NCBI GenBank assembly: GCA_049599475.1
Contig: JBMYOQ010000040.1
Location: forward strand, 1-36,583
DNA from: Opitutales bacterium
GTDB taxonomy: Bacteria > Verrucomicrobiota > Verrucomicrobiia > Opitutales > JABSRG01
Direction of reading: 5' to 3'
Length of the DNA: 36,583 nucleotides
A program made the translations under genes and the position numbers. The notes beneath the pieces were generated by a model. That model had not been told where the DNA came from and did no database searches. It saw nothing but the letters and a program-made list of their open reading frames with translations. Below are positions 5,240 to 36,203 of the stretch, piece by piece. Every line of letters starts with the position of its first letter. Position 1 is the first letter of the stretch.

Positions 5240-5373
5240 GGCTGGACCCCAAAAGTCGCCCAAACAGGCGACAGATTGAGGGGAACTTCGCACAGTAGGC
5301 CCTTGAATTCCATAGAATAATCCGTTTAGAAAAGGCACACCACCACCCAACTCAAACGTTCCTGCTCCCTCTT

Positions 5374-6297: not shown

Positions 6298-6389
6298 GGA
6301 CTTGTTCTCGGGTCAGCCTGTATCACGGGGACCTGCCAGTCCGAGAGATTGAACTCTGTCACATTTCGCAGCCTCTACCTCCCAGGAAG

Positions 6390-6454
6390 GGTCAAAATTA
6401 TCCAGCCTTAGGACAGGTACGTCTATTTCGGCTTCCGCAGTTTTAAGTTACAAT
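6390..6454 (+). promoter_or_regulatory. Putative AraC-type operator (two half-sites, 21-bp period) and -10 box upstream of the sugar operon
   Basis: GGTCAAAATTATCCA (6390-6404) and GGACAGGTACGTCTA (6411-6425) lie 21 bp apart; TACAAT at 6449-6454; a similar site occurs on the reverse strand at 9458-9472. Confidence 0.4.
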
Positions 6455-6487
6455 AAGGGTCCTTTCGAATCTTCGATTACGACTCTT

Positions 6488-7540: not shown

Positions 7541-7543
7541 GCC

Positions 7544-8368: not shown

Positions 8369-8392
8369 ATCGTATCCACTCTTCCATACACC

Positions 8393-9412: not shown

Positions 9413-9575
9413 GACAAAAAGCGGTCCATCAACGCAAGGACTTGAGAGATCAAAAGCTAGACATTCTTGACCTATATTTGCCTATAGAATAATCAGCCAT
9501 ATGACTGGTTCAAAAAATCGCACCACAAATGAGAAACAAGCCTCATTAACGCCCAGTCACTGAGAAAAATTCTCT

Positions 9576-11587: not shown

Positions 11588-14500
11588 ATGACGAATAAGC
11601 TACCCCCTTATGCGCATGCGCCAGAACAGACAATTGCCCATGGCGGCGACTTTAAGTCTGTTGATCAGCGCTCCAAGCCGAGCCCCTCGATCGCGAATCT
11701 GACTCCCATCCTGGCACTCCCCGCCCTGATGTGCGTTCACAGCGCACACGCACAGATGTCAGTGCACTTCGAAGATACTGCCCGGGAAATGTCGAAAGAG
11801 TATCTGATGCACTGGGATCGGATTGAGGCCAAGTGGTATGGCCCAGAGCTGACTCTTGTCGAAAACGGGGACATGGGCAATGTGCCCGCCAGCGAGCAAT
11901 CCTTTTCATCCGCAGTCATTGGCGACACATTCGGATTCACCGTAGAAGGCGTCGACGACTGGGACATGGCCGATGCAGATACCGAAAGCGCAAACAACAC
12001 ATTTGGCGCCTACATCGCTGGTCTGAATAAAACCAACATCAACATTCACGGCGGAGTGCCCATGGGGCTGGGCGTAGACAATGGAAACAGCTCTGACGTA
12101 AATGATAGTGTAGTCTTTCAGGACAACGGAAACCGCCGCGACAAGATCGACGATATTGGAGAGGCCCTCATAATCACTTTTGATACCAACGGCGGACTCA
12201 TGCCAGCCGAATCCGGACAGTTCCACCCGAGCCCAGAATCAACCTTCACCAACAATGGCCTCGGCGAATTCTCCAAGCTTTTCATTGAGGGCGTTTGGAT
12301 GAAAAAATACGACACCGCGAGCCTAAGACAGACAGGCAGCGTAGATGTCGTTTTCTACGACGTGAGCGCAAATACAGTGGTCCAGCGCCACCTCTACGTA
12401 GGTGCGGATAGCCAATCTGAAGCCTCGAACGTGCTCAACCGTCAAGAAGTCGAAGATGGCGATGTACTGATCCTGGCAAACCCTACTCTCGGGATTGATC
12501 CAGAAACGAACACACCCGTCGATCTCACATACCTAGTCACCGAACTGTGGGGCTTCACCTTCGATATCGAGTTTACACCGCCCGCAGATGATCCAGTCGA
12601 TACCAGCAACCCACCCCAGCACGCATTCGACGCGGGAACCCCCGGAGTCCCCGGATTCTCCAACATCGTGCGTGAAGATGGTGAGCTCGTAGCGCTCTTC
12701 CGCACCGACGGCACCTTGACCGATTTCGATGCCCTGCGAACCGTCACCTTAGATTTCCACAGAGGTTACCTGATCTCTCAAACACGCGGCACAAGCGTAG
12801 GGAACGCCTGGGGCGTTTTCGATATTTCCGATATCACCTCAGCAAATCCCACTGAGTCCGATCCAGTCGACCGCAGACCCACTCAAGTCGGTGAATGGCA
12901 GAAGACTACCGGCTCCACGCCGATGCACACTTACTTCGGCTACGAGCAAGAGCTTCGCGTGAACAACCCGGGGAGGGACTACTATGACCTATCGACTCTC
13001 CCCACCCTTACCCGCCTCGACTCATATCCTGCGGGCTATCAGGCAGTCGGAACAGGCGGTGGACGCAGCGCCTATAGCCTCCCTTACAACTACCACTCTA
13101 GCGGCAATGGACCGGTCACTATCTGGAATGCCAAGACTGGCGAAGACTTGGCGACACTGACCGATCATAATTTTGGTGCCATCGCAGTCCCCGTTGGGAA
13201 TTTGCTCATCCTCGCGAAAATCCGTGCCGGTGAACGCGCGCTAGCCTTTTACGATATCAGCGATCCAGAACGCCCAGCACTGCTCGATGTCATGCGCGCA
13301 AACGACCCTCGCTGGAGGATTCAGGGCCCTAGTGGTGCTTACGAGCCCGCGATTTTCGAGAATTACCTAATTCTCTCTAACTCCCTCCGCGGAGGCTACA
13401 CAGTCTTCATCGATTTCTCGGACCCGACAGACCTGAAGGTCCACCACCGTATCCTTGGAATCGACGGATCCGAGCGCTACCTTCAATTCCAAGACAAGCG
13501 GATGTTCGCCGGCACTGAAGTGATCGACCTCACCTACCTCGACCAAGGAGTTTCGACTGTAGAGCACGTGTTCGATAATCACATCGTCGACGGTGTCGAT
13601 TACGGCGCTCACCAAGGCGAATACATGCTTCCCTTGGGAAATCTTGTGGTCTGCGCTGAAAACTCGGAACAAGGCATTGAGAGCGTCGCAGCAATCTATG
13701 CATTCCAAGCTGAACCCGATGTGCTCGGACCCACCGTCGGGTATCACGTACCGACCGCCGGCGCTACCGATCAAGCCGTCACCTCGCGCATTGGGTTGAT
13801 GATCCACGAGACACTCGATACCACCACCCTCACCGATCAAACTCTCAAGGTATTTAAATTAGGCGATCCCGAGAACAGCATCGCCGGCACCCGCACCATT
13901 AGCGATAAAGACGTTGTCACTTTTACCCCAGAACAAGCCCTTGACTACAACACGACTTACCGCGTAGTCGCCGAGGGCATCAAAGATATCGCAGGCAATC
14001 CTATGGAGCGCTACGTGTTCGATTTCACTACGCAGCAATCCGATTCCCTGTGGTACCCCACTATCGATAGCGTCGGTATCGCTTACGTGCCTTCCATCAT
14101 CGCTGGCCAGGAAATCACATTCTTTACAAATGCCACTCCGGATAATGGAGAACCCCTCGACACACTCGAGTATCGCTGGGACTTCGGAGACGGCAATATT
14201 CAGGATTGGACATCAAATTTCGAAGCGACACATACATACCGCTTCCCAGGCAAATATGACGTAAAGGCCCAAGTGCGCAGCACAAATGCACCGCACTTGA
14301 TAACCATGCTCCAACTACAGCCATCCGTATTCACCAAACCTGCGGGCGAAGATGGCCATGAGCCACGCCTTGAGGCGGAAAACGGGGTATTGACGGGGCC
14401 CAACATTTCTATCGGCTATTCCGACGACTCATCCGGCGGAGCATACGTTCTATGCGAGGTAAATTCTGGAGTCTACTGGGATTTCGATAGCGTCGGCGGC

Positions 14501-17500
14501 CACTTCGATTTCCAATTCTGGGTCGCTATGCCCGAAGGTGAGGAAGTGCCAAGCAACCAAAGCTTCTCATGGCGCATGGGAGTCTACGTAAGCGAGATCG
14601 TAGACGGCGTCGCCACGAATGAGCAGTATCTCGGCGAATTTGCGACACGCAGCACGACTTACGAATACAAGGGCTTTACCGGCTATCTTCCACGCGAAGG
14701 TCGCTACCGCATCCAGCTCAAAGACGGCTCCGGCCCGCGTGAGCCCCGCGTTGATTTCGTGGACATCAAGGGGACCCCCAACCCAATCCGCTATGAAGCA
14801 GAAATGCTCCCAACGGCAAACATTACAAACGGCACAACCACCCCAGCCAACGGAGCTTGGTCTGACGCAAGCGATGGCAATTATGTAGAAGGTGCCGAAG
14901 GGTTTGAAGTCACCTGGAATTTTGATGCATACCAAACGGGTATTTACGACATCACCCTCAGAGCGAGTTCACAAAGCGCCCAGCCCAGCCAAATGGGATT
15001 GTTCGTAAATAATGTGAAGGTCCAAACCATTACACTCAGTTCCGGCAGTTTTGAAGACGTCTTGATTTCGGTGGAACTCGCCGAGGGCGCCAATACCATC
15101 GAACTCCGCGACTCCGAAGGCGGCGCGGAATTCAATGTCGACTATCTCGACATCGCGATACCTGCCTGGGAGGCACCCGCGCCACCACAGCGCAGCAGCC
15201 AAATTGCTTTGGACTCCGAAAACCGCCGCATTTACACCGTAAATCCGGACAACGACTCCATCACCGCGATCGATGCAGATGCCACTCCGGCCGTTAAACT
15301 CTGGGAACGCACAGTATCGAAAAATCCACGCGGTCTGGGCGTGGATTCCCAGGGACGCATCTGGGTCACCAGCTTCGGTGGAGACAGCATCGACATCGTC
15401 GACCCCAACAATGCGACAAACGATCAAGTGCTGCTCTATCCTCACGGATCAGCGCCTCACGATATCGTATTCAACGATGCGGGCACCCGCGCATTCGTCT
15501 CCTTCTACGGCGACCAGAAAGTGATTCAATTCGATGCTGAAAGCGCCCAAGGCGAAGAAATTTCAGAGGTAGCAACAGGCCCCTACCCAACCGCCCTAGC
15601 ACTCAGCGCAGACGAATCCACACTATTGGTAAGCCGCTTTATCTCCGGCGACGCGCGGGGAGACATTTATAAAATTAGTAACGATCCCGCGAGCGGGAAC
15701 ATGACCCTCGAATCCACGATCCCTCTTGCTGCAGATACAGAAAGCGCAGACGGCGGTATCGAAGGCCGCGGCATACCCAATTACATTACAAATATCGCGA
15801 TAAACCCAGAGTCCGGCGATGCCTACATTGCATCACAAAAGATCAATATCTTTGCCGGAGATTTCCGCGACCCAAGTCAACCCCTACTCCACGACTCAAC
15901 GGTCCGCACCATTGTCTCTGTAATCGATACCGAGACAAACGCAGAACGATTTGACGACCGGGTAGATATCGACAAATCATCTCAGCCCTCGGCTCTCTGG
16001 TTCGATCCTCAAGGCAATTTCCTCTTTGTTGCGCTGCAGGGAAACAACGCCGTCCAGATCCTCGATAACGGTGTAAACATCGGCACATTGGAGGTAGGTG
16101 CAGCACCTCAAGGCCTCACCTTCGACCCAGCGACCAATCGCCTCTACGTTAAGAACTTCATGAGCCGCGACGTGAGTGTCCACGATCTATCGAATTCCCT
16201 CCTTCTTGGCAACTTTAGCAACACGCTAGAGACAACGATAGACACTGTCGCAAGCGATGCCTTAGACGTAGGCAACATTCTACTCGGCAAACAAATTTTC
16301 TACCATGCATCGGCTCAAATGTCCCGCGATGGTTACATCTCCTGTGCATCCTGCCACCAAAACGGTGGACACGACGGTGCCACTTGGGACTTCACCCAAC
16401 GCGGCGAAGGTTTGCGCAATACCACGGATCTCCGCGGTCGTGCTGGCATGGCAAATGGCAACGTGCACTGGAGCGGTAATTTCGATGAGATTCAAGATTT
16501 CGAAAATGACATTGTAAATCATTTCGAAGGCTCCGGCTTCCTTCCCGAAGGCGAAGAGCCCAATGCACCTATGGGCGCTTCCAATGCAGGGCGCAGCTTA
16601 GAACTGGACGCCCTGGCCGAATACATTAGCTCCCTCGAAGACGAGAGCCTACCCAATAGCCCGCACAAAGAAGAAAACGGTCTTTTGACTGCTAATGCCA
16701 TAGCCGGTAAGGCTCTCTTTACTTCGCTGGATTGCGCAAGCTGCCATATTCCACAGGACGGCTACACAGACAGTCTCGGAAGTTTCTTACACGACGTCGG
16801 CACCCTCAAGGAATCTTCAGGTAAACGCCTCGGAGGCACTCTTCTTGGAATCGATACTCCGACTCTACTCGGCATTCACACTTCAGCCCCGTATTTCCAC
16901 GACGGCCGTGCGGCGACACTGGAAGATGTGTTCGACCCCACTGGCGATTCCGAGAGAGTCAATGAAGTCGGACAAGTGCATGACCTCAGCGGCCTTACTG
17001 CTACAGAACGCACCCAACTCATCGCTTTCATCAACGAACTCGACGCCTTGGAAGTAGCTACACCACCTGCCTTCACAGAGGGCACTCTGATCGCAGCCCT
17101 AGGAACCGCAGGGGAAGCTTACTCAGAAAGCATTGCCGGAGATGTAAACTACGCGGGCAACGACACCCTGACCTTCTCCAAAGTATCTGGTCCAGACTGG
17201 CTCAGCGTCGCAGCAAACGGAGACCTCTACGGGACCCCGACGAGCGGAGATGTCGGAGAGAATACTTTCACAGTCCAAGTGTCCGCATTCGATGGCACGG
17301 ATACCGCCGACTTGAGCATTCTCGTGGATCAATCTACTGAATCGACCGTGGGCGCAGTCGACAGCGCAAGCCGCTTGGCTCATGCGACATTCGACAGCAA
17401 TGCTGCAGACAGTGATAACACCTTGAACCTCAGCCTAGCGAGCGGCGCCATCATTGAGAGTGGCATTGGCCAATTCGCAGGATCCGTCCGCCTTGGCGGA

Positions 17501-18679
17501 AGCGGCGCAGAAGTTCGCATCGCGGATCATGTCGATTTCAACAACGGTAATGCACCGTGGGCTGAGCGCACTATAGCGCTGTGGTTCACCGTAGATGCAG
17601 TCGTGGGTCGCCAAATGATCTTTGAAGAAGGCGGCAGCACACGCGGCTTCAATATCTACCTTGAGGATGACACTCTCCACGTCGGCGGTTGGGACTCTGC
17701 CAGTGACGGCAACGATACCGGCACTTGGGCAGGCACCTGGCGCACAGTCAGCGGCATCACAGCCAACCAGTGGCATCATGTTGCGCTCGTCCTCGACGCA
17801 TCAGCGAATCCGACAGCACCCACCGAAGGGCAATTCTTTGCCTACCTCAACGGAGTTGAATTCGACGTGGGCAATAGCATCGGCATGCAAATCTGGAATC
17901 ATGGAGACAATGCTGCAATCGGTGGCATCAACGGCGGTTCAAAATATGCGAGCGGTTCTGCCCCCGCAAACATGGTGGGCAACGTAGACGACTTTGCCGT
18001 CTGGAACCGAGCGCTCACCGCTTCTGAAGTCGCCCGCTTGATGGGCCCATCGCTCAACCTTGCAGTGAGCATGATCAACACTTCAGGAGAGGCTGAGGCC
18101 ACAAAAGCATGGACCTTTACCGATCTCGATAGCACGAACCCCCAAGTCACAAAAGGTAGTGTCACCACCGAGGGTTCGATCGGTATCTTGACAGAAGCTG
18201 ACACCTTCACGATTACAGCCTCATCACTGGATGACTGGTCAACAGCGAATGCATCCGCCTCAACGGGTGACTTCCAGACTTACCTCTCCGGTATCGAAGC
18301 CACGAATACATCCACCCTCGATGCTCTTGGCAGCGGCATCATGGGTGTAAACGGCACGTGGATGGAGGGCACAACTGAGGCAATTGTGCTCACAGTAGAC
18401 ACGGCTGGCTTACCTAGCCTAGCGACACTCTACCTCACAGAGATCAACTTCGCCAATTATACAGGAACCGACCGGACTGACTTCCTTATCTTCCGCCCTA
18501 GCACCAACACGGTTATCGCCAATCAATGGAACGCCAACTACAACGGCCCCGATTCCGTATCCGGAAACTGGGCCCTCGAAGACGGCGACAAAATCATCAT
18601 CGCCACCGGCTCTGCAAACCTAAATCAGTTCCGCTTCAAAGGAATGAGCTTTGTAGTGGCAGATCCTGACGCACTCTAA
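11588..18679 (+). CDS. Giant secreted multidomain di-haem protein: unknown N-domain, LVIVD-like propeller, Big_5, PKD, 2x CBM6/35-like, YVTN propeller, bCcP/MauG-family di-haem domain, Ig (He_PIG), LamG, repeat of the N-domain
   Basis: Signal ending AHA-Q; YDISDPERP/IDFSDPTDL repeats; VTFTPEQALDYNTTYRV (Big_5); YRWDFGDG..HTY (PKD); RLEAE/RYEAE..NVDYL (CBM6/35-like); IYTVNPDNDSITAID and TGPYPTALA (YVTN); CASCH at 16343-16357 and 16733-16747; TPTL..APYFHDG; GPDWLSV..GDLYGTP; WHHVALV..VDDFAVWNRALT. Confidence 0.9.
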   Translation: MTNKLPPYAHAPEQTIAHGGDFKSVDQRSKPSPSIANLTPILALPALMCVHSAHAQMSVHFEDTAREMSKEYLMHWDRIEAKWYGPELTLVENGDMGNVPASEQSFSSAVIGDTFGFTVEGVDDWDMADADTESANNTFGAYIAGLNKTNINIHGGVPMGLGVDNGNSSDVNDSVVFQDNGNRRDKIDDIGEALIITFDTNGGLMPAESGQFHPSPESTFTNNGLGEFSKLFIEGVWMKKYDTASLRQTGSVDVVFYDVSANTVVQRHLYVGADSQSEASNVLNRQEVEDGDVLILANPTLGIDPETNTPVDLTYLVTELWGFTFDIEFTPPADDPVDTSNPPQHAFDAGTPGVPGFSNIVREDGELVALFRTDGTLTDFDALRTVTLDFHRGYLISQTRGTSVGNAWGVFDISDITSANPTESDPVDRRPTQVGEWQKTTGSTPMHTYFGYEQELRVNNPGRDYYDLSTLPTLTRLDSYPAGYQAVGTGGGRSAYSLPYNYHSSGNGPVTIWNAKTGEDLATLTDHNFGAIAVPVGNLLILAKIRAGERALAFYDISDPERPALLDVMRANDPRWRIQGPSGAYEPAIFENYLILSNSLRGGYTVFIDFSDPTDLKVHHRILGIDGSERYLQFQDKRMFAGTEVIDLTYLDQGVSTVEHVFDNHIVDGVDYGAHQGEYMLPLGNLVVCAENSEQGIESVAAIYAFQAEPDVLGPTVGYHVPTAGATDQAVTSRIGLMIHETLDTTTLTDQTLKVFKLGDPENSIAGTRTISDKDVVTFTPEQALDYNTTYRVVAEGIKDIAGNPMERYVFDFTTQQSDSLWYPTIDSVGIAYVPSIIAGQEITFFTNATPDNGEPLDTLEYRWDFGDGNIQDWTSNFEATHTYRFPGKYDVKAQVRSTNAPHLITMLQLQPSVFTKPAGEDGHEPRLEAENGVLTGPNISIGYSDDSSGGAYVLCEVNSGVYWDFDSVGGHFDFQFWVAMPEGEEVPSNQSFSWRMGVYVSEIVDGVATNEQYLGEFATRSTTYEYKGFTGYLPREGRYRIQLKDGSGPREPRVDFVDIKGTPNPIRYEAEMLPTANITNGTTTPANGAWSDASDGNYVEGAEGFEVTWNFDAYQTGIYDITLRASSQSAQPSQMGLFVNNVKVQTITLSSGSFEDVLISVELAEGANTIELRDSEGGAEFNVDYLDIAIPAWEAPAPPQRSSQIALDSENRRIYTVNPDNDSITAIDADATPAVKLWERTVSKNPRGLGVDSQGRIWVTSFGGDSIDIVDPNNATNDQVLLYPHGSAPHDIVFNDAGTRAFVSFYGDQKVIQFDAESAQGEEISEVATGPYPTALALSADESTLLVSRFISGDARGDIYKISNDPASGNMTLESTIPLAADTESADGGIEGRGIPNYITNIAINPESGDAYIASQKINIFAGDFRDPSQPLLHDSTVRTIVSVIDTETNAERFDDRVDIDKSSQPSALWFDPQGNFLFVALQGNNAVQILDNGVNIGTLEVGAAPQGLTFDPATNRLYVKNFMSRDVSVHDLSNSLLLGNFSNTLETTIDTVASDALDVGNILLGKQIFYHASAQMSRDGYISCASCHQNGGHDGATWDFTQRGEGLRNTTDLRGRAGMANGNVHWSGNFDEIQDFENDIVNHFEGSGFLPEGEEPNAPMGASNAGRSLELDALAEYISSLEDESLPNSPHKEENGLLTANAIAGKALFTSLDCASCHIPQDGYTDSLGSFLHDVGTLKESSGKRLGGTLLGIDTPTLLGIHTSAPYFHDGRAATLEDVFDPTGDSERVNEVGQVHDLSGLTATERTQLIAFINELDALEVATPPAFTEGTLIAALGTAGEAYSESIAGDVNYAGNDTLTFSKVSGPDWLSVAANGDLYGTPTSGDVGENTFTVQVSAFDGTDTADLSILVDQSTESTVGAVDSASRLAHATFDSNAADSDNTLNLSLASGAIIESGIGQFAGSVRLGGSGAEVRIADHVDFNNGNAPWAERTIALWFTVDAVVGRQMIFEEGGSTRGFNIYLEDDTLHVGGWDSASDGNDTGTWAGTWRTVSGITANQWHHVALVLDASANPTAPTEGQFFAYLNGVEFDVGNSIGMQIWNHGDNAAIGGINGGSKYASGSAPANMVGNVDDFAVWNRALTASEVARLMGPSLNLAVSMINTSGEAEATKAWTFTDLDSTNPQVTKGSVTTEGSIGILTEADTFTITASSLDDWSTANASASTGDFQTYLSGIEATNTSTLDALGSGIMGVNGTWMEGTTEAIVLTVDTAGLPSLATLYLTEINFANYTGTDRTDFLIFRPSTNTVIANQWNANYNGPDSVSGNWALEDGDKIIIATGSANLNQFRFKGMSFVVADPDAL

Positions 18680-25076: not shown

Positions 25077-27017
25077 CTATTTTTCCACGACCTCGACCCC
25101 ATCGGGCAGTTTTGCGAGTTGGGCCGGACGGAACTGACCCGGAGCAACGATAAGCTTTTGCAAACTCTTATGTTCGGACAGCGGATTGAGCGTCTTGATA
25201 CGGAGTCCTCGAAGGTCCAGCTCCCGGACATTTAGAGATTTGAGTGGAAGCAACTGTTGCACAGAGGACTGCTGAAGGCTCAGTTTAAGCGGTTCCACAA
25301 CAGCGAGGACGCTCCATGTGTTGGAAAAACCAAGATGCGCGACTCCGGGATCCACAATTTTCCAAACGCCATCGGAAGACTGCTTCATTATCGGTCCGCT
25401 CGCATCAGGGTTCAGCAGAGCCAAGACTCCATTTACGATGAATATTCGATCTGCCGCTGGCCGCTCGAACGCACTGTCATATATTAAAAGAAGTTCGAGA
25501 AACTGGGTACGGTTGTACAGCGGATTCGTATAAATATCTTGGATATAGTTGAGTAGGTCTTCGGCACTCAGGCAGCCGTTTTCCTGAAGTTTAGGCGCAT
25601 ATTTATGAGCTAAATCAACGAGATCTTGAACGTTCAACGATTCGCTCTCCGGATGCTGATTCCGTTGACGCTCCGTCCTGAGTGCCGCCTGAAAATCTTG
25701 CCGAATGGAGCACAGCCAGACTTTCTGAGTCCACACATAGAGGTTTGGCGGCGGATCATACTGTAGCACTGCATTGACCTGCTTTAGGGCTTCCTTGACA
25801 TTCCTTGCGAGCGCATCGGGCAAAGTATTGAACCGTGTCAAAGCGGTCGCCTGCCTGGCGGCAACTGAGGCTTGGTTCCGGAGGCGCTCTTCGCTTATTT
25901 GCTTCTCTTGCAAGTATTGAGATAGAGCCAATTCCGCTGTAGCACGGCTCTGGTCCAGCTGCATAATGAAAATACTGGTACCAGCGATGAGCAATATGCT
26001 AAACACAAGGGCGACCTGAGATGCCGTCTTATTCCTCAAATAAAATCGCTTAAGCTCCCGTAGAATATGTGTTTGTTCGGTCGATACAGCGTAACCGTCC
26101 AGGAAGCGTTCAATATCAGCACCCAAGGCCTCCATCGTGGCGTAGCGCTCATGAGGATTCTCCTCACAGGCTTTTCGCACGATCGCCACGAGAGCCGGGT
26201 CTGTCATGCTGGATTCATGACCCGCACCGACAGTCTCTTCAATAAGACGTCCCAATGCATAGATATCCATTTGCGGTGTTTTGGCTTCGCGGGGATCCTT
26301 CTGCTCCGGAGCCATAAATCCGGGCGTGCCCGCTTTTAGATTGAGCAGAGGTCCATAGAGGTCTGGATCGAGCAAGGTGGAATCCTCTTCCGTTGAGAAG
26401 ACGACCGCCATCCCCCAATCACACACTTGCACCTCGCCGAAGGTACCTACCTGAATATTCTCTGGCTTGAGATCGAGATGAACAATTCGATTGGCGTGCG
26501 CGTACGTCATCGCATCACAGATCTTTTGTACGACACGCATGCGCTGTTGAATCGAAATGTGTTTTTCGCCCGATTCTATCTGTTTTGTAAGCTCATGTAA
26601 GGAACTGCCTTTTTTGAGCTCCATTGTGAAAAACGGGCGCCCCGCCTTATCCACCCCCATATCAAAGAGGTCTATAATCGCGGGGTGCTCCAAGCGGGCA
26701 GTAAAATGTGCCTCGCGGAGGAAGGCATCATAATGATCCAAGGACACCTCTTCTTTCGGGCAAGCCAGAGCCACGTCTCGCTCAGTCTGCGAATCGTAGG
26801 CCTTGTATATCTGCTTCATTCCCCCGACGCCCAGGGACTCCACAGAATGGTAGCGATCTTCGATCTGATTTAGCCGAGAATACAGAGGCGCGATTTCTTC
26901 CGTGTCCGACGGCTGAGACATCTCCCGAGGATGGGCCTGAGCATAGAGATCTTGGGTGAATTCATTTAAATTCTCCCGGGCAAAATCAAACAGCTCCCGA
27001 CTCTCGTCCTTATCCAT
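25077..27017 (-). CDS. Membrane Hanks-type Ser/Thr kinase with WNK-like Lys placement, non-RD loop, TM helix and C-terminal LRRs
   Basis: GVGGMK, VALA, FLREA, LEHPAI, HLDLKPENI, CDWG, GTPGFMAPEQ, DIYALG; TM VALVFSILLIAGTSIFIM; LRR LKSLNVRELDLRGLRIKTLNPL. Confidence 0.92.
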   Translation of the reverse strand: MDKDESRELFDFARENLNEFTQDLYAQAHPREMSQPSDTEEIAPLYSRLNQIEDRYHSVESLGVGGMKQIYKAYDSQTERDVALACPKEEVSLDHYDAFLREAHFTARLEHPAIIDLFDMGVDKAGRPFFTMELKKGSSLHELTKQIESGEKHISIQQRMRVVQKICDAMTYAHANRIVHLDLKPENIQVGTFGEVQVCDWGMAVVFSTEEDSTLLDPDLYGPLLNLKAGTPGFMAPEQKDPREAKTPQMDIYALGRLIEETVGAGHESSMTDPALVAIVRKACEENPHERYATMEALGADIERFLDGYAVSTEQTHILRELKRFYLRNKTASQVALVFSILLIAGTSIFIMQLDQSRATAELALSQYLQEKQISEERLRNQASVAARQATALTRFNTLPDALARNVKEALKQVNAVLQYDPPPNLYVWTQKVWLCSIRQDFQAALRTERQRNQHPESESLNVQDLVDLAHKYAPKLQENGCLSAEDLLNYIQDIYTNPLYNRTQFLELLLIYDSAFERPAADRIFIVNGVLALLNPDASGPIMKQSSDGVWKIVDPGVAHLGFSNTWSVLAVVEPLKLSLQQSSVQQLLPLKSLNVRELDLRGLRIKTLNPLSEHKSLQKLIVAPGQFRPAQLAKLPDGVEVVEK

Positions 27018-27621
27018 GCTCCCCTTCTAGCTCAAAACGTAGGGTTTGAATTTCCTGAGTAAGGCGCGTCTTCACACGATTCTTGAGCACATAGACACTC
27101 CCCTGCGTAAGGTTCAGTTCCGATGCGATCGCCTCCGACGATTTACCTTTCAGCGAAAGCGCAAGCACGGCAAAGGCTTTGCCAGAAAAAACCGACTGCA
27201 AGCGATCCATGGCCAGCTCGACAATATAGCGCTCCCACTCGCCTTGGATAAAATTTTCTACCTGCGAATTTTCTGGGGATACGCATTCGGGCTCATTCTC
27301 TTCGAGGGGAGAATGTTGTTTGCGTTTCTGCGATTTAAACCAGTTCAAGGCCGTATTCCGGATCAGCGTGGATAACCAATTCCGGAAACGCGCTTGTTTC
27401 TCATCGCGGTGATACTTGTCCAGACCTTCCCACATACGGATGAGAACCAGCTGGCGCACCTCATCGAGATCAGACCCTTTCAACCCCATCCGTCCAAGAA
27501 TTTTGTTCACGAACGGCGTATAATACTCGAGCAACTCATTCCACGCCGGGTCATGGCGATCCGCCTTTACCTGCTGCAGCAAAGAAACGCGTGTAGGAAG
27601 CATATCTGTGTATCGGCGCAT
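27010..27621 (-). CDS. ECF sigma-70 factor of the kinase-associated PVC type
   Basis: TRVSLL..AWNELLEYY, RFRNWLSTLIRN (sigma2); SEAIASELNLTQGSVYVLKNRV (sigma4); 8-nt overlap with the kinase start (ATGGATAA). Confidence 0.93.
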   Translation of the reverse strand: MRRYTDMLPTRVSLLQQVKADRHDPAWNELLEYYTPFVNKILGRMGLKGSDLDEVRQLVLIRMWEGLDKYHRDEKQARFRNWLSTLIRNTALNWFKSQKRKQHSPLEENEPECVSPENSQVENFIQGEWERYIVELAMDRLQSVFSGKAFAVLALSLKGKSSEAIASELNLTQGSVYVLKNRVKTRLTQEIQTLRFELEGEHG

Positions 27622-27893: not shown

Positions 27894-30800
27894 ATGAATA
27901 AAATATGTCTCATGTTCGGTATCGCCGCTCTGATACCGAGCCTTACCCCTGCACAAGTTGCATTTCGTTCCGATAATTCTGGTCCCGTCGCTCAAAGGGA
28001 CTTTTTCTTCCACTGGAACGGCTTCGAAGCCGAATGGTTTGGACCCGAAGTCCAATACGTCCAAGACGGCGATACGAAGCTCGTAGATACCAACAGCCCC
28101 ACGACTTTCCCCAACGGATACGTCGGCAGCTCTTTTGCCTACTCCATGACGGGAGTGCAGGACTGGAATACGGAAAACGCTGAGAAGGTCTTGAATGGCT
28201 TAAGTATCGATGAGGGGAACGGCCCTGTCACCTATCCTGATTTCCCAGCCTATCTCGCTGCACGCACTGCAGCGAACGTGGGCAAGCATGGAGGCTCACA
28301 ATTCGGTTTCGGCATCCAGACCGATGTGACCGAGGACGAACTGGGCGGAAACGTGCGCGCAGACAAGTTGGATTACAAAGGCGAGGCGATCATCATCACG
28401 TTCGATACCGACGGCAGCTTAGACATGGACAATGCTGTGGGCACCTTTGGCCCGATTCCGAATCAGCGCTTCGAAAACACAGGCCTGAGGGATGATGTTA
28501 CCCTCACGATCACCGAAGTGCATGTGCGCAGATGGTATGAAGGCCAGGACATCTATGTGGACATTCTTTTCTACGATGCCAGCACCGGCCAAATTTTGAC
28601 TGACGCCAATGGCAGCCCCGCCCTCCATAAATACGAGGATTTGGGCCCGGCAGATAAGGATGATCGAAACAGCCCCGATCGCCCATTTTTCACTCAGGGT
28701 GCTCCCTGGGTGATCGAAGATGGCGACATGCTGATCATTGCGCACCCTACGGATGAGTCCCAGAACTTGAACGGCATCACCTCCGAGCTCTGGAGCATGA
28801 CCTTCGACCTTAACTACGATAAGCCGGCCTTTGAATACCCTGAGGTCCCCGGCGATCCCAACCTTATCCCACAACACCCCTACTCGCCCGGCTTTCACAA
28901 TACCTGGCGTGAGGATGGAGAGCGGATCGCCTTGTATCGCACAGTGCCCAAGGAGCCGGACCCAAATGCAGATCCCGAAACGGATCCTGTCGGCGCTCGG
29001 GATTTCGAAACAATCCGGACTGTTGTGACTGAGTTTCACCGCGGGCACCTCATCACCGATAACCGTATCGCATCCGAGGAAAATAAGGGCATCTACTTCG
29101 ATTTCTCTACGGTCACCGACCCCGATCGCGATGAGTCCAACGAAGATAACCTACGCCCTTCGGTGGCATTCCAGGGGGTAACTGCGGGCGCGATGCACCA
29201 GGCATGGCACCTGATTCCAGACTATCGCGGCAATCACGGCCCGACGAATTGGGTTGAGCTTTCTGGATTGAGTGACCCAAGCCCTACCGTCGAAAAAGTG
29301 TTCACCCCACCAGGCTTTGACTTTCTCGCTGGCGATGCTCGTAGCTCTTACGCACTCCCCTACGTCTACAGCAAATTCGGAGACGGCCGGGAAATTGCCG
29401 ACGCTCGCACAGGAGAGCAACTGTCCTCTTACAGCGAGCACGGTTTTGGCAGCGATGTCATCTCAATGCCGGTGGGAAATATTCTCCTCGTGTGTAAGGT
29501 CCGTGCGGGAGAGCGCGCCATTGCCACATACGATGTGAGTGATCCGCGTCGACCAGCCCTCCTCGATGTTATGCGCGAGGATGATCCTCGATGGAAGGAT
29601 ACGAATAGAGGGGCCTACGAACCCGCTGTTTACAATAATTACATCGTCCTCCCGGCCGGGGTCGGGGGCTCACGCGTCGCCTTTATTGACTACTCTGATC
29701 CCTCAAACCTACGTATGCACCACTCCATCAGAGAGGTAGAGGGAGGTGTCCGCTATGTGCAATTCCAGGATCACCGTATGTTCGTCGGCAGGCAGGTTGT
29801 GGATCTCTTTCATATAGATGCCGGCATTTCATCCATCGAGCACAATTTTACCGGATCCTCTGGAGAATACTTACTCCCCCTCGGAAACCTTTTGCTTTCA
29901 GCTGAAAATTCAGAGCAAGGCATCACCAACCAAGCCGCCATTTACGCATTCCAGGCAGAACCAGACGTTCGCTCGCCCAAAGTGAGCTATCACATCCCGG
30001 CGGATGGCGCAGTCGATCAACACATTAAATCGCGGATTGGTTTAATCATTCACGAGACCCTCGACCTCACCACACTGCATCCGGCAAACCCCAATTCGCC
30101 CAGTGACACCGATCCGCTGAGAGTATATCGCCTCGGAACCGACGGAGAACCCGAGGCGCTGATTTCGGGCACGGTCGTAGTCAGCGACAAAGACGTCATT
30201 ACCTTCACACCGAATGCGGACCTAGATTACGCGACTCGCTATCGGGTGGTTGCAGAAGGCTTCACAGATATCGTAGGGAATCCTGTAATACCTCATCAAT
30301 TCGAGTTCGAAACTCAGAGCGCAGGTGCCATATGGTATCCTGAAATCGAGTATGCGGGACTCGCCCCGGATTCTGAGTCGATCGTCGGACAGACAATTAA
30401 TTTTTCAACCGTAGCCTCTCCTTACGAAGGCGAGTCCGCCGATACTTTGGAATATCGCTGGGATTTCGGCGATGGCACGATCAGTGACTGGATCTCGAGT
30501 TCCGAGGAATCGCACATCTATAGCTTTCCCGGAACATTTACGGTGAGAGCATGGGTGCGTAGCGAGAATGCCCCAGACCTCAAGGTCGTGCGCATGTTCG
30601 AGACTCGAGCCGATTTCAAAGATGCGGGCGAGGACGGCTTTGAACCACGTTTCGAAGCGGAATTCGGGACTTTGACAGGCAATCACAGCGAAATCCAAAG
30701 TGATTCAGATGCATCGGGCGGCCTCACTGTGAAAACGGGAGCCAGCTCCGGAGTCTACTGGGATTTCGAAACTGTGGGCGGCGATTTTGATTTCAAATTC

Positions 30801-33788
30801 ATGATGGCCGTCCCTAGCACCGTAGAAGAAATTCCGTCCAATACGATATACTCATGGCGTAAGGTGGTTACTCTGAGTGAGATCGTAGACGGGGAGGCAA
30901 TCAACCCCACAGACCTTGGAATCATCGCCTCCCGCAGCTTTGATTATAGCAGCCAAAGAGTCTCAGGATACATTCCCAAAGCCGGGCGTTATCGTCTCGA
31001 CACGACAAAGGGCGACGGGCCGCGAAGACCGTTAATAGACTTCGTGGATGTGACAAACGGGAACAACACCTACAGGTATGAGGCCAATCTTGAGGATTCA
31101 GAGAACATCACAAGAGGTACGATCACCAATGCTGAACCTGGGACCAATCTAGAGGACGCCACCGAAGGCGTTTACGTCCACGCCGGTTCACGTTTCGGTA
31201 TGAAATGGGATTTCGAGGCCTTCCAAGCTGGCTCTTATGAAATGACTCTCAGAGCGGCGTCTAGACTCGTAAATAGCTACATGGGCCTCTTCATCAACGA
31301 CGAGAAGATCGATGTGCTCCATCTCAAGGGAAAAACTTTCAAGGAGCTGACTTGGACCGCAGAACTGGTAGAGGGCAACAACGTCATCGAGCTACGAGAC
31401 TCCGAAGGCTCCTCTGAATTCCACGTCGATTACCTCGATATTAAAATACCTGACTGGCAGGCACCAGAAGTTTACCTTCCACGGAATAGCAGCCAGCTAG
31501 CCCTCGATATAAACGGTGGCATGATCTACACGGTGAACCCCGACAATGACACCATTACCGCTATTGAGAGCGTCGAAAATGTAGACCCTGCACCCGTATG
31601 GGAGCTCGATACACCCGGTAATCCCAAGAGCATTGCCATGGATGCAGCCGGGCTTCTGTGGGTCACCTTACATGAGGGTGATGCCATTCGAATCATCGAT
31701 CCAGCACTGCAAGAAAGTGTCCTCGACCTCACCCTCGATTACGGCTCTCGCCCCCACGACATCGTCATGAGCCGCGATGGAACCCGAGCCTTCATTTCGC
31801 TTTATGGAAGCGGGCAAATCATCCAGATGGATACGACTGACTATAGTTTCGTGAGCTCGGTCGATACGGGCCCCTACCCCGCAGCACTCGCCCTCCGAGG
31901 CAGAGATCTAGAACTGCTCGCAGCACGCTTCATTTCCCCAGCAGACTGGGGCGAAATATACTCTATTGCGATCGATCCGGAAACTGAGGATATGAGCCTG
32001 AGCTCCACCTTGACCCTCGCTAAAGATACCGTGAGTGAGGTGGGTCCAAGTTCTGGCCAGGGCGTTCCCAACTATTTGGCGAGCATCGTGATCAACCCCG
32101 AGGACACCATTGCCTACATTGCATCTCAGGAGGTCAACAGCGTAGCGGGCGCCTTCCGCAACGGTGAACAGCTGAATCACGATTCTACCGTTCGCCCCAT
32201 CGTCTCCATGATAAACCTGGAGACAGGCGAAGAAGACTTCGAAAGCCGCATCGACCTAAACGACGCTGCGCAACCCCAGGCGATCACCTTCTCACCGGAC
32301 GGCACATACATGTTTATCGCTCTCCAAGGAAGCAACGTCATCTCCGCGAGAACTACAGCAGACAATGTCGAACGGTCGAGCCTGAGCACCGATCTCGCAC
32401 CTCAAGGCCTGATTGTGGACCCCGGGACAAATCGCCTCTTTGTTAAAAACTTCATGAGCCGCTCAGTCACCGTCCACGATGTTTCTGGCCAATTATCCGA
32501 CAACAGCAGACTAGACATCTCTACGCTCATAGAAAAGGAAGAGGCGCTCGATCCCCAGATACTCCTCGGCAAGCAGATCTTCTATAATGCGGATGACGAG
32601 CGTATGAGCTTCGAAAGCTATATCTCTTGCGCATCCTGCCACCAGGACGGCGGTCATGACGGTGTAGTCTGGGATTTCACCCAACGCGGAGAGGGCCTGC
32701 GTAATACCACCGATCTGCGTGGTCGCTCCGGCACGGCGCATGGCAATGTGCACTGGACCGCAAACTTTGACGAAATTCAAGACTTCGAGTTAGACATCGT
32801 AAACGATTTCGACGGCGATGGCTTTATCGAAGACGAAGACCCCAATGATGCCATGGGAGCGCCCAATGCGGGCCGCAGTGACGATCTCGATGCACTCGCT
32901 GCCTACGTCGCCTCCCTAGGCGAAGAAACCGTGCCTCCGAGCCCTTACCGTGAACCCGATGGCTCGCTCAGCACCCAAGGGATGCACGGCATGCGTCTCT
33001 TTACGGGCGAGCTCACTCCGGCTTCCGGCAACACCCTAAGCTGTATGGAGTGTCACGCTCGCGATTATGAATATAACAATAGCCAGAGCTTCGCCGGGGA
33101 AAGCATTCCAAGTGGCGCATTGCGCGATGTCGGAACCCTCGAAAGTAGCTCGGGCACACGCCGGGGAAGCCCTCTTCTCGGAATCGACACACCGACACTC
33201 TGGGGACTGCACGCAGGTGCTCCGTATCTGCACAATGGCAGTGCAGCAACAATCGAGGCGGTGTTTGACAAGTTCGATCCAGACGCCCCTCTCGGCTCGG
33301 ATGGAGCCGCACACAACCTATCTGAAAGTGGCTACGACTTGACCGACGATGAACATGCAAGCCTCATGTCCTTCCTTTATCAGATCGATAATACTGAGCG
33401 TGAGCAGATGAATTCAGGCACCTGGATGGCGTCCTGGGGTCAGGATCTGGGCCCGAAAACGGCAGACTTCGACGGCGACACCATAAGCAACTTCCAGGAA
33501 TATCTATTCGGAGGCAATCCAATGCGCTTCGATAGCCCCGATATTCTGCCCAAGATCGTATTCGAGGACGGAGTTCCCCAGTACAGCTTCAATTGGCCAG
33601 CGAACGACCCGAATATCAGCTACACACTGCAGACTTCGGTCGACTTGAATGAATGGACCGAATTCATCGACGCAGGCGTTCCCACCGCAGCAACGATCGA
33701 CGCCTTCCTGGATTCTATCCAACTCGTCATTGACGAAAATCAAGAGCAATCCTTCTACCGGCTGGAGGTGTTTGAGTCAGAACTGTAA
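27894..33788 (+). CDS. Second giant secreted di-haem protein, paralogue of 11588..18679, ending in a verrucomicrobial-type C-terminal domain
   Basis: Sec signal ending TPA-Q; same domain order through the di-haem domain; CASCH at 32628-32642 and CMECH at 33042-33056; near-identical WDFTQRGEGLRNTTDLRGR and HWxxNFDEIQDFE; C-terminus DFDGDTISNFQEYLFGGNP...SVDLNEW...FYRLEV. Confidence 0.9.
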   Translation: MNKICLMFGIAALIPSLTPAQVAFRSDNSGPVAQRDFFFHWNGFEAEWFGPEVQYVQDGDTKLVDTNSPTTFPNGYVGSSFAYSMTGVQDWNTENAEKVLNGLSIDEGNGPVTYPDFPAYLAARTAANVGKHGGSQFGFGIQTDVTEDELGGNVRADKLDYKGEAIIITFDTDGSLDMDNAVGTFGPIPNQRFENTGLRDDVTLTITEVHVRRWYEGQDIYVDILFYDASTGQILTDANGSPALHKYEDLGPADKDDRNSPDRPFFTQGAPWVIEDGDMLIIAHPTDESQNLNGITSELWSMTFDLNYDKPAFEYPEVPGDPNLIPQHPYSPGFHNTWREDGERIALYRTVPKEPDPNADPETDPVGARDFETIRTVVTEFHRGHLITDNRIASEENKGIYFDFSTVTDPDRDESNEDNLRPSVAFQGVTAGAMHQAWHLIPDYRGNHGPTNWVELSGLSDPSPTVEKVFTPPGFDFLAGDARSSYALPYVYSKFGDGREIADARTGEQLSSYSEHGFGSDVISMPVGNILLVCKVRAGERAIATYDVSDPRRPALLDVMREDDPRWKDTNRGAYEPAVYNNYIVLPAGVGGSRVAFIDYSDPSNLRMHHSIREVEGGVRYVQFQDHRMFVGRQVVDLFHIDAGISSIEHNFTGSSGEYLLPLGNLLLSAENSEQGITNQAAIYAFQAEPDVRSPKVSYHIPADGAVDQHIKSRIGLIIHETLDLTTLHPANPNSPSDTDPLRVYRLGTDGEPEALISGTVVVSDKDVITFTPNADLDYATRYRVVAEGFTDIVGNPVIPHQFEFETQSAGAIWYPEIEYAGLAPDSESIVGQTINFSTVASPYEGESADTLEYRWDFGDGTISDWISSSEESHIYSFPGTFTVRAWVRSENAPDLKVVRMFETRADFKDAGEDGFEPRFEAEFGTLTGNHSEIQSDSDASGGLTVKTGASSGVYWDFETVGGDFDFKFMMAVPSTVEEIPSNTIYSWRKVVTLSEIVDGEAINPTDLGIIASRSFDYSSQRVSGYIPKAGRYRLDTTKGDGPRRPLIDFVDVTNGNNTYRYEANLEDSENITRGTITNAEPGTNLEDATEGVYVHAGSRFGMKWDFEAFQAGSYEMTLRAASRLVNSYMGLFINDEKIDVLHLKGKTFKELTWTAELVEGNNVIELRDSEGSSEFHVDYLDIKIPDWQAPEVYLPRNSSQLALDINGGMIYTVNPDNDTITAIESVENVDPAPVWELDTPGNPKSIAMDAAGLLWVTLHEGDAIRIIDPALQESVLDLTLDYGSRPHDIVMSRDGTRAFISLYGSGQIIQMDTTDYSFVSSVDTGPYPAALALRGRDLELLAARFISPADWGEIYSIAIDPETEDMSLSSTLTLAKDTVSEVGPSSGQGVPNYLASIVINPEDTIAYIASQEVNSVAGAFRNGEQLNHDSTVRPIVSMINLETGEEDFESRIDLNDAAQPQAITFSPDGTYMFIALQGSNVISARTTADNVERSSLSTDLAPQGLIVDPGTNRLFVKNFMSRSVTVHDVSGQLSDNSRLDISTLIEKEEALDPQILLGKQIFYNADDERMSFESYISCASCHQDGGHDGVVWDFTQRGEGLRNTTDLRGRSGTAHGNVHWTANFDEIQDFELDIVNDFDGDGFIEDEDPNDAMGAPNAGRSDDLDALAAYVASLGEETVPPSPYREPDGSLSTQGMHGMRLFTGELTPASGNTLSCMECHARDYEYNNSQSFAGESIPSGALRDVGTLESSSGTRRGSPLLGIDTPTLWGLHAGAPYLHNGSAATIEAVFDKFDPDAPLGSDGAAHNLSESGYDLTDDEHASLMSFLYQIDNTEREQMNSGTWMASWGQDLGPKTADFDGDTISNFQEYLFGGNPMRFDSPDILPKIVFEDGVPQYSFNWPANDPNISYTLQTSVDLNEWTEFIDAGVPTAATIDAFLDSIQLVIDENQEQSFYRLEVFESEL

Positions 33789-34142: not shown

Positions 34143-36203
34143 ATGAATCAAGAGCTCTCCGATCAAGACTTCCTAAAGGCCTACACCGAGGCGTCGGTAG
34201 ACCTTGGAGAGTTTGATCAATTTCGAGTCAGCATAGACACTCAAAGATATCGCAACGAGAAGTTCGTCGCCGAAGGGGGAACCAAGAAAATATATAAGGC
34301 CTATGACTCGGCAGGAAAGCGTGTCGTCGCTCGCGCTTTCCCAAAACTTGAGGAATCCAAGCATCACGACACCTTCGTTCGAGAGGCGCGCCTACACGCC
34401 CAGCTCGAGCACCCGAATATCATTCCTATTTACGATATTGGTGTAGAGGACGCCAAGCCCTACTTCTCCATGAAGTTTATCGTGGGCGGCACCCTCAAAA
34501 CATTTATCGAAAACGCCGAGGTAGAAGCGTCGCGGATGATATCTGAGAATTTAAATACAGCGTTCGATATCTTCCTAAAGATCTCCGATGCCGTATCCTA
34601 CGCCCATTCGAAGAATATCCTGCACCTCGATTTAAAACCGGATAATATTTACCTCAACGAATACGGAGAAGTCTATGTCGGCGATTGGGGCTTGTCGCGG
34701 GCCTTGGACCCGGAGGACTACGAGGAGAGCGAAGTGCCCAACTCATTGGGCCAATGGTCGCACTACGGACATTTGATCGGGACTCCCGGTTTCATGGCTC
34801 CGGAACAATGCGTAAAAGGCGCCGAAAAAGGATACTACAGCGATGTCTACTCATTAGCTGTATTGCTCATTCAACTACTCACGGGAAAAATGGTCGTAAA
34901 TGGGTCCCCCGAAGAAATGATTGAACAGACGGTGAACGGGGACCTCATCGACTTGAATGGTTTGCTAGACGATCGCCTACTTGGTGTATTGAAAAAAGCA
35001 CTGTCCACCGACCCCACCGATCGCTACCAGTCGGTCAAAGATCTGTTGACCGATATTAACGCCTACAGAAACGGCTTCTTCACCTCGACGGAACAGTTTT
35101 CGGTACTCAAGTTGATATCAGCGATCTACAATCGCAATAAGGTAACTTCTAATCTAGTGCTCGGGTTTGCCGCTATAATATTTGCCTTAAGTATTTTCTT
35201 CGTTGTCGAGATTACTCAGGCCCGTGACTACGCGTTCGCTCAAGAAGAGATCAGTAAGGATAGGCTGGCACAATACCTTGAGAGTGAAGTGCAGCGCTCA
35301 AAGGTCATCACCAACGCTTATAACTTCCTTCTCAGCGAAGGGATCGAGAACTATGAACGCCGTCGGCCCGGCTCTGGGTTCTCGAGTGAGAATTTTTCAG
35401 ACGCCCTCAACATGGCCGAGATTGCTCTCAAATTCGACCCCAGCTCGTCGGAAGCCTGGGCCCTCAAGGCCAAAATATATATGGTAGAGGGCCTTTTTAG
35501 CGAAGCCCACGCAGCCTTTTCGCGTGCCGGACCAGGCTACGAAAAATATATGGAGATATGCACCTTTGCAGACAGCAAGGATACACGAAAACTCCCCGAT
35601 CTCGTCGATGTATTAATCAAACTGCGGACACTCAATGACAATCGCCTGTTTAATCATATAATGTTCCGCGAAATGTATCGACAGCGGCCACCACACAAGC
35701 AAGTCGAGCTGGTGAGAGAATTCCTGATACTTAGAAATAAGTCCAACATTAGTATCAATTTTCGATTCGACAAAGATCGGATGGCCTTAGACCTTTCCGG
35801 CAGTACAGAGCTCGAAATCCTCTACCCTCTCCAAATCCTCCCACTTCGAGAACTCAACCTCGCAAACACAGGCGTACGCCATGGCGACTTTCTGCACATT
35901 CAGAATATGCCCCTCACCCATTTAGACGTTTCAAATACCGTTTTCGACAATGCACGCATGCGCATTCTCGAAAAGAAACCCTTGCATACCCTTTCCCTGG
36001 AAAACTGTTCTGTGAGCGATCTGAGGGCCTTAAAGGAAACACCATTAAAACATCTCAACATAGCGGGTACACCCGTACAAAATTTCAAACCTTTGAAATC
36101 TGTAGAGCAGCTAGAAACAATCGTGTGTTCGCCCTCTCAGTTGCCGAAAATCAAAAGTGTTCTTCCAGCAAATCAAAACATTCAGTTCGTAATAAGAAAC
36201 TGA
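34143..36203 (+). CDS. Second membrane Ser/Thr kinase, WNK-like and non-RD, with TM, TPR-like repeat and LRRs
   Basis: AEGGTK, VARA, FVREA, LEHPNI, HLDLKPDNI, GDWG, GTPGFMAPEQ, DVYSL; TM LVLGFAAIIFALSIFFVV; TPR-like ALKFDPSSSEAWALKAKIY; LRRs LPLRELNLANT, MPLTHLDVSNT, KPLHTLSLENC, TPLKHLNIAGT. Confidence 0.92.
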   Translation: MNQELSDQDFLKAYTEASVDLGEFDQFRVSIDTQRYRNEKFVAEGGTKKIYKAYDSAGKRVVARAFPKLEESKHHDTFVREARLHAQLEHPNIIPIYDIGVEDAKPYFSMKFIVGGTLKTFIENAEVEASRMISENLNTAFDIFLKISDAVSYAHSKNILHLDLKPDNIYLNEYGEVYVGDWGLSRALDPEDYEESEVPNSLGQWSHYGHLIGTPGFMAPEQCVKGAEKGYYSDVYSLAVLLIQLLTGKMVVNGSPEEMIEQTVNGDLIDLNGLLDDRLLGVLKKALSTDPTDRYQSVKDLLTDINAYRNGFFTSTEQFSVLKLISAIYNRNKVTSNLVLGFAAIIFALSIFFVVEITQARDYAFAQEEISKDRLAQYLESEVQRSKVITNAYNFLLSEGIENYERRRPGSGFSSENFSDALNMAEIALKFDPSSSEAWALKAKIYMVEGLFSEAHAAFSRAGPGYEKYMEICTFADSKDTRKLPDLVDVLIKLRTLNDNRLFNHIMFREMYRQRPPHKQVELVREFLILRNKSNISINFRFDKDRMALDLSGSTELEILYPLQILPLRELNLANTGVRHGDFLHIQNMPLTHLDVSNTVFDNARMRILEKKPLHTLSLENCSVSDLRALKETPLKHLNIAGTPVQNFKPLKSVEQLETIVCSPSQLPKIKSVLPANQNIQFVIRN

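Follow-up and report, generated by a model that had tools for sequence, protein, structure and literature searches.

A membrane kinase gene of an Opitutales bacterium with a WNK-like lysine arrangement and a neighbouring sigma factor gene

Can a Hanks-type protein kinase work when the ATP-anchoring lysine is missing from strand beta3 and a lysine stands in the glycine loop instead? This question is raised by a membrane serine/threonine kinase gene lying beside a gene for an extracytoplasmic function (ECF) sigma-70 factor in a 36,583-nucleotide stretch of DNA from an Opitutales bacterium (assembly GCA_049599475.1, contig JBMYOQ010000040.1, positions 1 to 36,583), referred to here as the window. 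Judging from sequence comparison, we consider it quite probable that the gene encodes an active, non-RD receptor kinase of the PknB fold with its ATP-anchoring lysine transferred from beta3 to the glycine loop, that this kinase phosphorylates the co-encoded ECF factor, and that its likeness to the eukaryotic WNK ("with no lysine") kinases arose by convergence. The Lys/Ala swap is fixed across a large clade that retains the other catalytic residues and is linked to one ECF sigma subfamily.

Active site of the kinase and its conservation

The kinase gene and its features are given below; domains with the lysine in the glycine loop are called loop-Lys, and those with the lysine on beta3 canonical.

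25077..27017, minus strand: membrane serine/threonine kinase gene, an intact open reading frame (ORF) of 646 aa with N-terminal helices, kinase domain, one transmembrane (TM) helix and a C-terminal helical plus leucine-rich-repeat (LRR)-like region
26814..26816, minus strand: Lys68 (K68), third-Gly position of the glycine loop and first residue of beta2, equivalent to PKA G55 and WNK1 K233
26763..26765, minus strand: Ala85 (A85), canonical beta3 lysine position, equivalent to PKA K72 and WNK1 C250
26712..26714, minus strand: alphaC Glu102 (E102), conserved in 175/176 loop-Lys domains
26457..26480, minus strand: catalytic loop HLDLKPEN, residues 180-187, non-RD, with D182, K184 and N187
26412..26420, minus strand: DWG Mg-binding motif, residues 200-202, equivalent to DFG (DLG in WNK)
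26304..26312, minus strand: APE motif, residues 236-238
25962..26018, minus strand: single TM helix predicted by hydropathy, residues 334-352
25080..25955, minus strand: helical and LRR-like region, a putative sensor (feature scores <0.9, a lead only), probably extracytoplasmic by presumed sidedness

The 646-aa protein matches the Pfam Pkinase model (E=1.5e-31). The original prediction, made from the sequence, had placed a lysine at the third glycine of the loop and an alanine at the VAxK lysine of beta3. Both substitutions were borne out: the 24-residue N-lobe peptide is the exact translation of 26763-26834 on the minus strand, and in a gap-free alignment with M. tuberculosis PknB, K68 stands opposite the residue that follows GFGGM, the last glycine-loop position, and A85 opposite the VAVK lysine. 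The interval first assigned to this motif, 26763..26831, covers G63-A85 and leaves the leading Leu62 of the peptide one codon outside. The alphaC Glu, HLDLKPEN, DWG and APE motifs predicted to be intact are all present in the ORF. Across the kinase and its clade, the Hanks-type features comprise the alphaC Glu, catalytic Asp/Lys/Asn, DxG Asp, APE and subdomain XI Arg, with the beta3 VAxK lysine replaced by Ala85. Non-RD kinases often need no activation-loop phosphorylation.

PknB was found to be the best match by both whole-domain sequence and fold. In the AlphaFold2 (AF2) model, built with 48 sequences (predicted local distance difference test, pLDDT, 89.6), beta2 starts at K68 and beta3 ends at residue 87; the model superposes on PknB 1mru with Z 28.7 and a root-mean-square deviation of 2.1 over 238 aligned residues, and PknB leads the fold matches listed. 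PknB, PknA and the DWG-type kinases of the Planctomycetes-Verrucomicrobia-Chlamydiae (PVC) bacteria share with the window protein the fold, the RF/FLxEA alphaC segment and the layout of kinase, TM helix and outer domain, and they are nearest in trees; they differ in that the loop has Gly/Ala/Ser and beta3 the Lys. One C-terminal TM helix was predicted by hydropathy in 103 of 113 full-length homologues.

Published active-site residues of WNK1 include I227, K233, V235, A248 and C250 (PMC12362796), and WNK1 is catalytically active with its relocated lysine (PMC4718504; PMC1821047). The window residues L62/K68/I70/A83/A85 have the same spacing (0, +6, +8, +21, +23), with the WNK1 register taken from published residue numbers rather than a residue-level alignment. 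As of 2007, WNKs were said to be unique among functional eukaryotic-type kinase families in having no beta3 lysine (PMC1821047). By analogy, the K68 side chain would fill the space left by the small Ala85, as next to the small Cys250 of WNK, bind the ATP alpha/beta phosphates and pair with E102 like K233 in WNK1; D182 would act as the base, and N187 and D200 would hold Mg.

A homologue search returned 3789 proteins at E<=0.001, ordinary kinases included, and the best 120 of these were examined. Across 121 rows (the query, the window paralogue and 119 homologues), K68 was Lys in 121/121 and position 85 was never Lys (A116, T4, D1). To avoid selecting on the trait, 80 GTDB loci were picked by hinge and catalytic-loop patterns blind to both lysine sites, and their kinases fell without overlap into two sets, 51 domains with the lysine in the loop and 34 with it on beta3. 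A larger set of 327 related kinase domains combined the GTDB loci with domains from 131 newly listed 50%-identity-library proteins, 60 genome regions and the genome's own five kinases; about half of the 60 regions are borderline matches, a few proteins entered the set twice by different routes, and two partial domains (the L014 3' fragment and the partial L058) were dropped before counting. The lysine was found in the loop only in 176 domains, on beta3 only in 148, at both sites in 0 and at neither in 3, which are degenerate tandem domains. The two states are mutually exclusive in 324/327 domains, in agreement with the predicted co-variation of lysine relocation and beta3 loss.

Among the 176 loop-Lys domains, position 85 is Ala in 175 and Val in 1, and the catalytic residues are no less conserved than in the canonical comparison domains (alphaC Glu 175, catalytic Asp 176, Lys184 174, Asn187 176, Mg-binding Asp 175, W of DWG 176). 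Leu replaces the HRD Arg in 172 domains, giving the HLD loop, and Arg stands there in 1. In the canonical comparison domains, beta3 carries the Lys and the loop Gly/Ala/Ser (148/148). When the clade is set against 97 DW-type canonical sisters, no columns are more clade-specific than K68 and A85. Several exceptions come from one degenerate copy, L014; at this locus (6433-7502), a split, degenerate second loop-Lys kinase copy lies downstream of an intact one. Purifying selection acts on the loop-Lys kinases, with a ratio of nonsynonymous to synonymous rates (dN/dS) of 0.03-0.19 in 22 of 23 close pairs and saturation in one, the pairs being not independent.

Sequencing error was considered as a source of the Lys/Ala pair and rejected. 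K68 is fixed in homologues, both Lys codons are in use (AAA 30, AAG 21 at 51 loci), and two further genes of the same genome share the pair (window 34143-36203 and contig C48), so the pair is neither an error nor chance. The genome's kinases comprise three loop-Lys and two canonical forms, and two of the former lie in the window, the kinase described above and the one that follows.

34143..36203, plus strand: second loop-Lys kinase, 686 aa, one TM helix, K48 in the loop and A65 on beta3; no adjacent ECF gene was found, and the contig ends 380 nt downstream

The clade was encountered in Verrucomicrobia, Lentisphaeria, Kiritimatiellae and Rhodopirellula. The loop-Lys loci were named Lentisphaerota (18), Verrucomicrobiota (17), Kiritimatiellota (12) and Planctomycetota (2), with 2 unnamed. 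Of 301 genomes sampled from the phylum, 87 had N-lobe profile matches, at most 11 per genome; the 87 is an upper bound because most weak matches turned out canonical on inspection (30/60 regions). Close matches are patchy within the genome's own order.

The adjacent sigma factor and other neighbours

The sigma factor gene starts upstream of the kinase on the same strand.

27010..27621, minus strand: ECF sigma-70 factor of 203 aa that shares 8 nt with the start of the kinase gene and is the kinase's probable partner and substrate
27592..27594, minus strand: ECF Thr10, an N-terminal Thr invariant in kinase-linked ECFs (38/38) and a candidate phospho-acceptor

TIGR02937 was the only model above its cut-off for this protein. 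With a profile seeded from the window ECF, an ECF gene was found within 1 kb at 37/51 loop-Lys loci compared with 4/34 canonical loci. The kinase and ECF distances are correlated (r=0.89, 36 pairs), above all 5000 permutations. The predicted kinase-ECF complex scored 0.39 compared with 0.02 for the best control, with contacts agreeing by at least 63% between runs and a partner pLDDT of at least 73; the complex-score mark is reached by 116/157 solved complexes and 2/215 mismatches, and at scores <=0.60 by 18 solved complexes and both mismatches. The prediction gives weak support to a kinase-ECF complex.

The adjacent ECF is likely the substrate of the kinase. Phosphorylation of an ECF by an adjacent kinase has been established for ECF43 (PMC8999054) and proposed for planctomycete groups (PMC7826278). 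The ECF43 pairs EcfP/PknT and EcfK/PknS and the planctomycete ECF59/61/62/217 share with the window a membrane kinase gene at +1 and no separate anti-sigma gene. In the ECF43 type, however, the acidic DAED motif of sigma2.2 is replaced by a Ser/Thr motif (PMC8999054), whereas the window ECF keeps the acidic sigma2.2 and has the invariant N-terminal Thr; the accessible text of those reports mentions no unusual kinase active site. The kinase would be switched on by a signal at the outer helical and LRR-like domain and would then phosphorylate the co-encoded ECF factor, with Thr10 as the candidate site, and so change transcription. Elsewhere in the same genome (contig C8, 6781-7503, minus strand), an ECF beside a canonical kinase was noted to carry an N-terminal T-x-x-S-L motif that is mostly missing from the other ECFs of the genome.

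A further genomic association was found for a short loop-Lys kinase (about 370-445 aa open frame), which lies directly behind tig-clpP-clpX at 12/12 fetched loci of one family (L121-L132) and at two named Lentisphaeria loci (L034, L035). Matches to the N-lobe profile for this clpX-linked family were obtained in 46/48 genomes. No ECF gene is near the short form, and its position suggests a conserved role near ClpXP proteostasis. In a Lentisphaeraceae genome (L051:3366-6184), a canonical-lysine HLD/DWG kinase was seen to be followed by a ClpX-like gene.

Other neighbours of the loop-Lys kinases are mixed. At 48/50 loci (116/122 ORFs scanned), sulfatases occurred in 5 loci, alongside several esterases and glycoside hydrolases, and many ORFs were unrelated or without a match; the scan had no control set, and no regulon is claimed. 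In the window, two large, similarly built proteins (11588-18679 and 27894-33788, both plus strand) carry PKD, Big_5, beta-propeller and di-haem cytochrome c peroxidase-like domains. Because the second of them is divergent from the ECF and upstream of the second loop-Lys kinase, it is a candidate target gene. The window also holds a protein of 1778 aa that carries a two-partner-secretion domain and DUF5649 repeats (14-5350, minus strand) and, in a row, an aldo/keto reductase, an amidohydrolase, a zinc dehydrogenase and an AraC regulator (5374-10448, plus strand), probably a sugar catabolism cluster.

Rival readings and the origin of the swap

The main rival is a conserved nucleotide-binding pseudokinase in which K68 would help to hold ATP without phosphotransfer, and the ECF would be controlled by binding, as by an anti-sigma factor or switch. 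It holds this place because conservation cannot separate binding from transfer. The absent beta3 lysine is the defining trait of pseudokinases in the bacterial atlas (10.1101/2025.01.12.632604), an ECF with an acidic sigma2.2 motif may need no phosphate, and the weak complex prediction fits binding as well as catalysis. However, each of the catalytic base, K184, N187, Mg-binding Asp and alphaC Glu is present in 174-176 of the 176 domains, while the catalogued pseudokinase families, as far as they are described, lose further catalytic residues; WNK1 is catalytically active with this geometry (PMC4718504), and the partner ECF has an invariant Thr. We regard the pseudokinase as unlikely.

Seven bacterial pseudokinase families have been described, DYD, DLHK, CP1, ActPs1-3 and GLW (10.1101/2025.01.12.632604; PMC12599244). 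Their reported hosts are actinobacteria, firmicutes, proteobacteria and Leptospira, and they show either an Arg substitution or motifs degraded further (PMC12599244). They share with the loop-Lys clade the loss of the beta3 lysine, and alternative ATP binding has been proposed for some of them, but in the accessible descriptions none combines a glycine-loop Lys with the intact Glu/Asp/Asn/Asp set. DYD pseudokinases are reported to have a beta3 Arg, no alphaC Glu and a DYD motif, compared with Ala, a Glu and DWG here; DLHK pseudokinases have no TM region, a degraded DFG and helicase fusions, compared with one TM helix and an intact DWG Asp. The atlas and a review cite WNK only as the eukaryotic case, and their main text does not mention Planctomycetes or Verrucomicrobia (10.1101/2025.01.12.632604; PMC12599244). 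The atlas's unclassified 'Bac_Unique' bin may hold loop-Lys sequences. No description of the loop-Lys clade was found in the open literature, with subscription papers and the atlas supplements outside that search, and the clade is apparently undescribed.

A second alternative, an active kinase in which another basic residue (K88 of ACPK, or K/R86) stands in for the beta3 lysine, leaving K68 as incidental, was rejected as scarcely probable. Position 86 is K/R in 111/121 closest rows, and K88 is present in the window protein. However, residue 86 of the window protein is Cys, and over the whole clade 31/176 domains have K and 27/176 have R at position 86, and 37/176 have K at position 88, compared with K68 in 176/176. 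A85 aligns gap-free with the PknB lysine. The original prediction had raised the doubt that the ACPK lysine might take the canonical position, but K88 lies past the end of beta3 in the AF2 model. The window protein is therefore probably an active kinase, to judge by its residues: the catalytic set is kept, Ala85 is fixed, positions 86 and 88 vary, dN/dS is low, and WNK1 is active with the same arrangement.

It is very improbable that the clade and the eukaryotic WNKs share an ancestor in which the lysine was already swapped, by deep homology or gene transfer, since despite the identical register and the place of WNK1 as top eukaryotic match to the N-lobe profile, PknA and PknB outscore WNK1 even on the N-lobe, and the clade, with HLD/DWG compared with HRD/DLG in WNK, nests in trees among bacterial DWG kinases with the normal lysine. 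Against solved structures, the N-lobe profile scored PknA at 59.5 bits, PknB at 53, WNK1 at 43.6 (the best eukaryotic chain, ranked 14th) and CDPK at 43.4, a near-tie. A narrower 26-column N-lobe profile did not retrieve WNK1, and no WNK was seen among the best 60 whole-domain matches or the fold matches listed, an absence that excludes nothing.

The original prediction had left convergence and deep homology side by side, and the first is now favoured. The likeness to WNK looks like convergence because the closest solved relatives are PknB and PknA and the DLG of WNK is DWG here. The kinase shares with WNK (WNK1 K233/C250; PDB 4pwn, 5w7t, 6cn9) a Lys where PKA has G55, a small residue where PKA has K72, the five-residue N-lobe spacing and the alphaC Glu, while it differs in having Ala rather than Cys, HLD rather than HRD (the Arg is R348 in WNK; PMC1821047), DWG rather than DLG, and the TM and LRR-like receptor layout. 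It looks WNK-like in working without being a member of the WNK family. The nearest precedent, a conceptual and microbial one, is CAK-chloro, for which a relocation of positive charge from site 72 to site 55 as in WNK (R55/M72) has been proposed (Kannan et al. 2007, PMC1821047). The clade shares the shift, but CAK-chloro belongs to the choline/aminoglycoside-kinase group, uses Arg and has lost the alphaC Glu to Phe, whereas the clade is Hanks-type with Lys and an intact Glu.

The lysine relocation in WNK is often explained by chloride sensing (PMC5346417), and the WNK chloride pocket comprises the DLG motif with F283/L299/L369/L371 (PMC5346417, PMC10438449). A chloride sensitivity as in WNKs had been raised as a check on the window kinase, and the idea was not supported. 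By motif spacing, the equivalents here are L117 (V/I/L), F130, W201 and M203 (mostly L), so that the WNK residues are not conserved, and a WNK-type chloride site is disfavoured because of the DWG motif. Ion gating of the loop-Lys kinases has no support beyond analogy.

The clade itself was recovered in several trees, which were thinned by identity and contained no WNK sequence. With FastTree, the 146 loop-Lys domains then in hand form one clade with support 0.96, or 0.92 without the beta1-beta3 columns. One origin for the PVC clade among bacterial DWG kinases is likely but not proven.

Further loop-Lys kinases were encountered outside this clade. A DNA-pattern scan for GxGGMKxVY alone returned at least 119 metagenome stretches and 32 viral stretches; at least 74 of these 151 are kinase-like, all metagenomic, and there was no kinase among the 32 viral-contig matches. 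A second group of at least 43 pattern matches on metagenome contigs (L147, L155, L178, L188, L194, L218 and others) has the loop Lys and a beta3 Ala, keeps the Glu, Asp, Lys, Asn and Asp in 22/22 long sequences, and carries (Y/H)RD and DFG. It is placed among DFG kinases, with a branch of SH-aLRT 96 between it and the PVC clade, and probably arose independently. A distant third group of at least 25 matches (L144, L148, L157, L158 and 21 others) has a GGMK loop, an aromatic residue at or near the beta3 Lys position (register by eye) and an HSD loop (HSDLSYxN); it matches Pkinase only, and no curated NCBIfam family passed. Three pattern matches carry both lysines (L230, L253, L169), with the L169 frame losing kinase likeness after beta3, and the remaining three kinase-like matches are short fragments. 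The double-lysine forms are rare; their existence suggests possible intermediates on a stepwise path between the two states. Repeated origin of the swap is fairly well supported: the design, convergent with WNK, would have come from bacterial DWG-type kinases, probably once for the clade, and probably again in the YRD/DFG group.

Several results weigh against an active, ECF-phosphorylating kinase or against this count of origins. Conserved ATP-binding pseudokinases also keep such residues, and the co-variation within the PVC clade is probably one inherited event, not 176. No ECF was found inside 1 kb at 14/51 loop-Lys loci (4 of these 14 with <700 nt of upstream DNA), and the clpX-linked family has no ECF. 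The linked ECFs keep the acidic sigma2.2 residues (D51 33/38, D/E54 38/38), so the EcfP activation mechanism is not directly transferable, and the correlation between kinase and ECF distances may arise from gene linkage or joint inheritance alone. A quick tree without the N-lobe (beta1-beta3) columns and with closer sisters added needs 4 changes, none of them forced by strong branches. In a careful 86-row tree without the two diagnostic columns, 50 loop-Lys rows group with a canonical HLD/DWG kinase, L110 (83/97), which is nested at weak support; a single loop-Lys clade is not rejected there (approximately unbiased, AU, test, p=0.37). Joining the second group with the PVC clade costs 50.5 log units with AU p=0.078, and separate origin is not formally shown.

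Consequences for kinases of the PVC bacteria

A broader possibility, which we hold to be quite unlikely, is that the WNK swap is a repeatedly evolved functional design (in WNKs, the PVC clade and at least one more bacterial group) with a back pocket at the vacated beta3 position, as has been proposed for WNK, through which a small ion or metabolite would tune activity; such kinases would be salt- or osmolarity-gated receptors controlling ECFs and possibly, in one family, the ClpXP operon. The loop-Lys clade and the probable second group, both without the DLG pocket, make it possible to test if the swap goes together with ion sensing or is simply another, equivalent construction of the active site.

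Standard rules would call the window kinase dead, although it is probably a working enzyme. A survey of Planctomycetota required the canonical lysine of the K-D-D triad before a kinase was counted as functional (PMC11032199), and pipelines that demand this triad in PVC kinases would discard the loop-Lys clade. A kinase-dead mutation would need the loop Lys as its target rather than the standard site. The clade also offers many kinase-ECF pairs with a sigma factor that does not fit the EcfP model.

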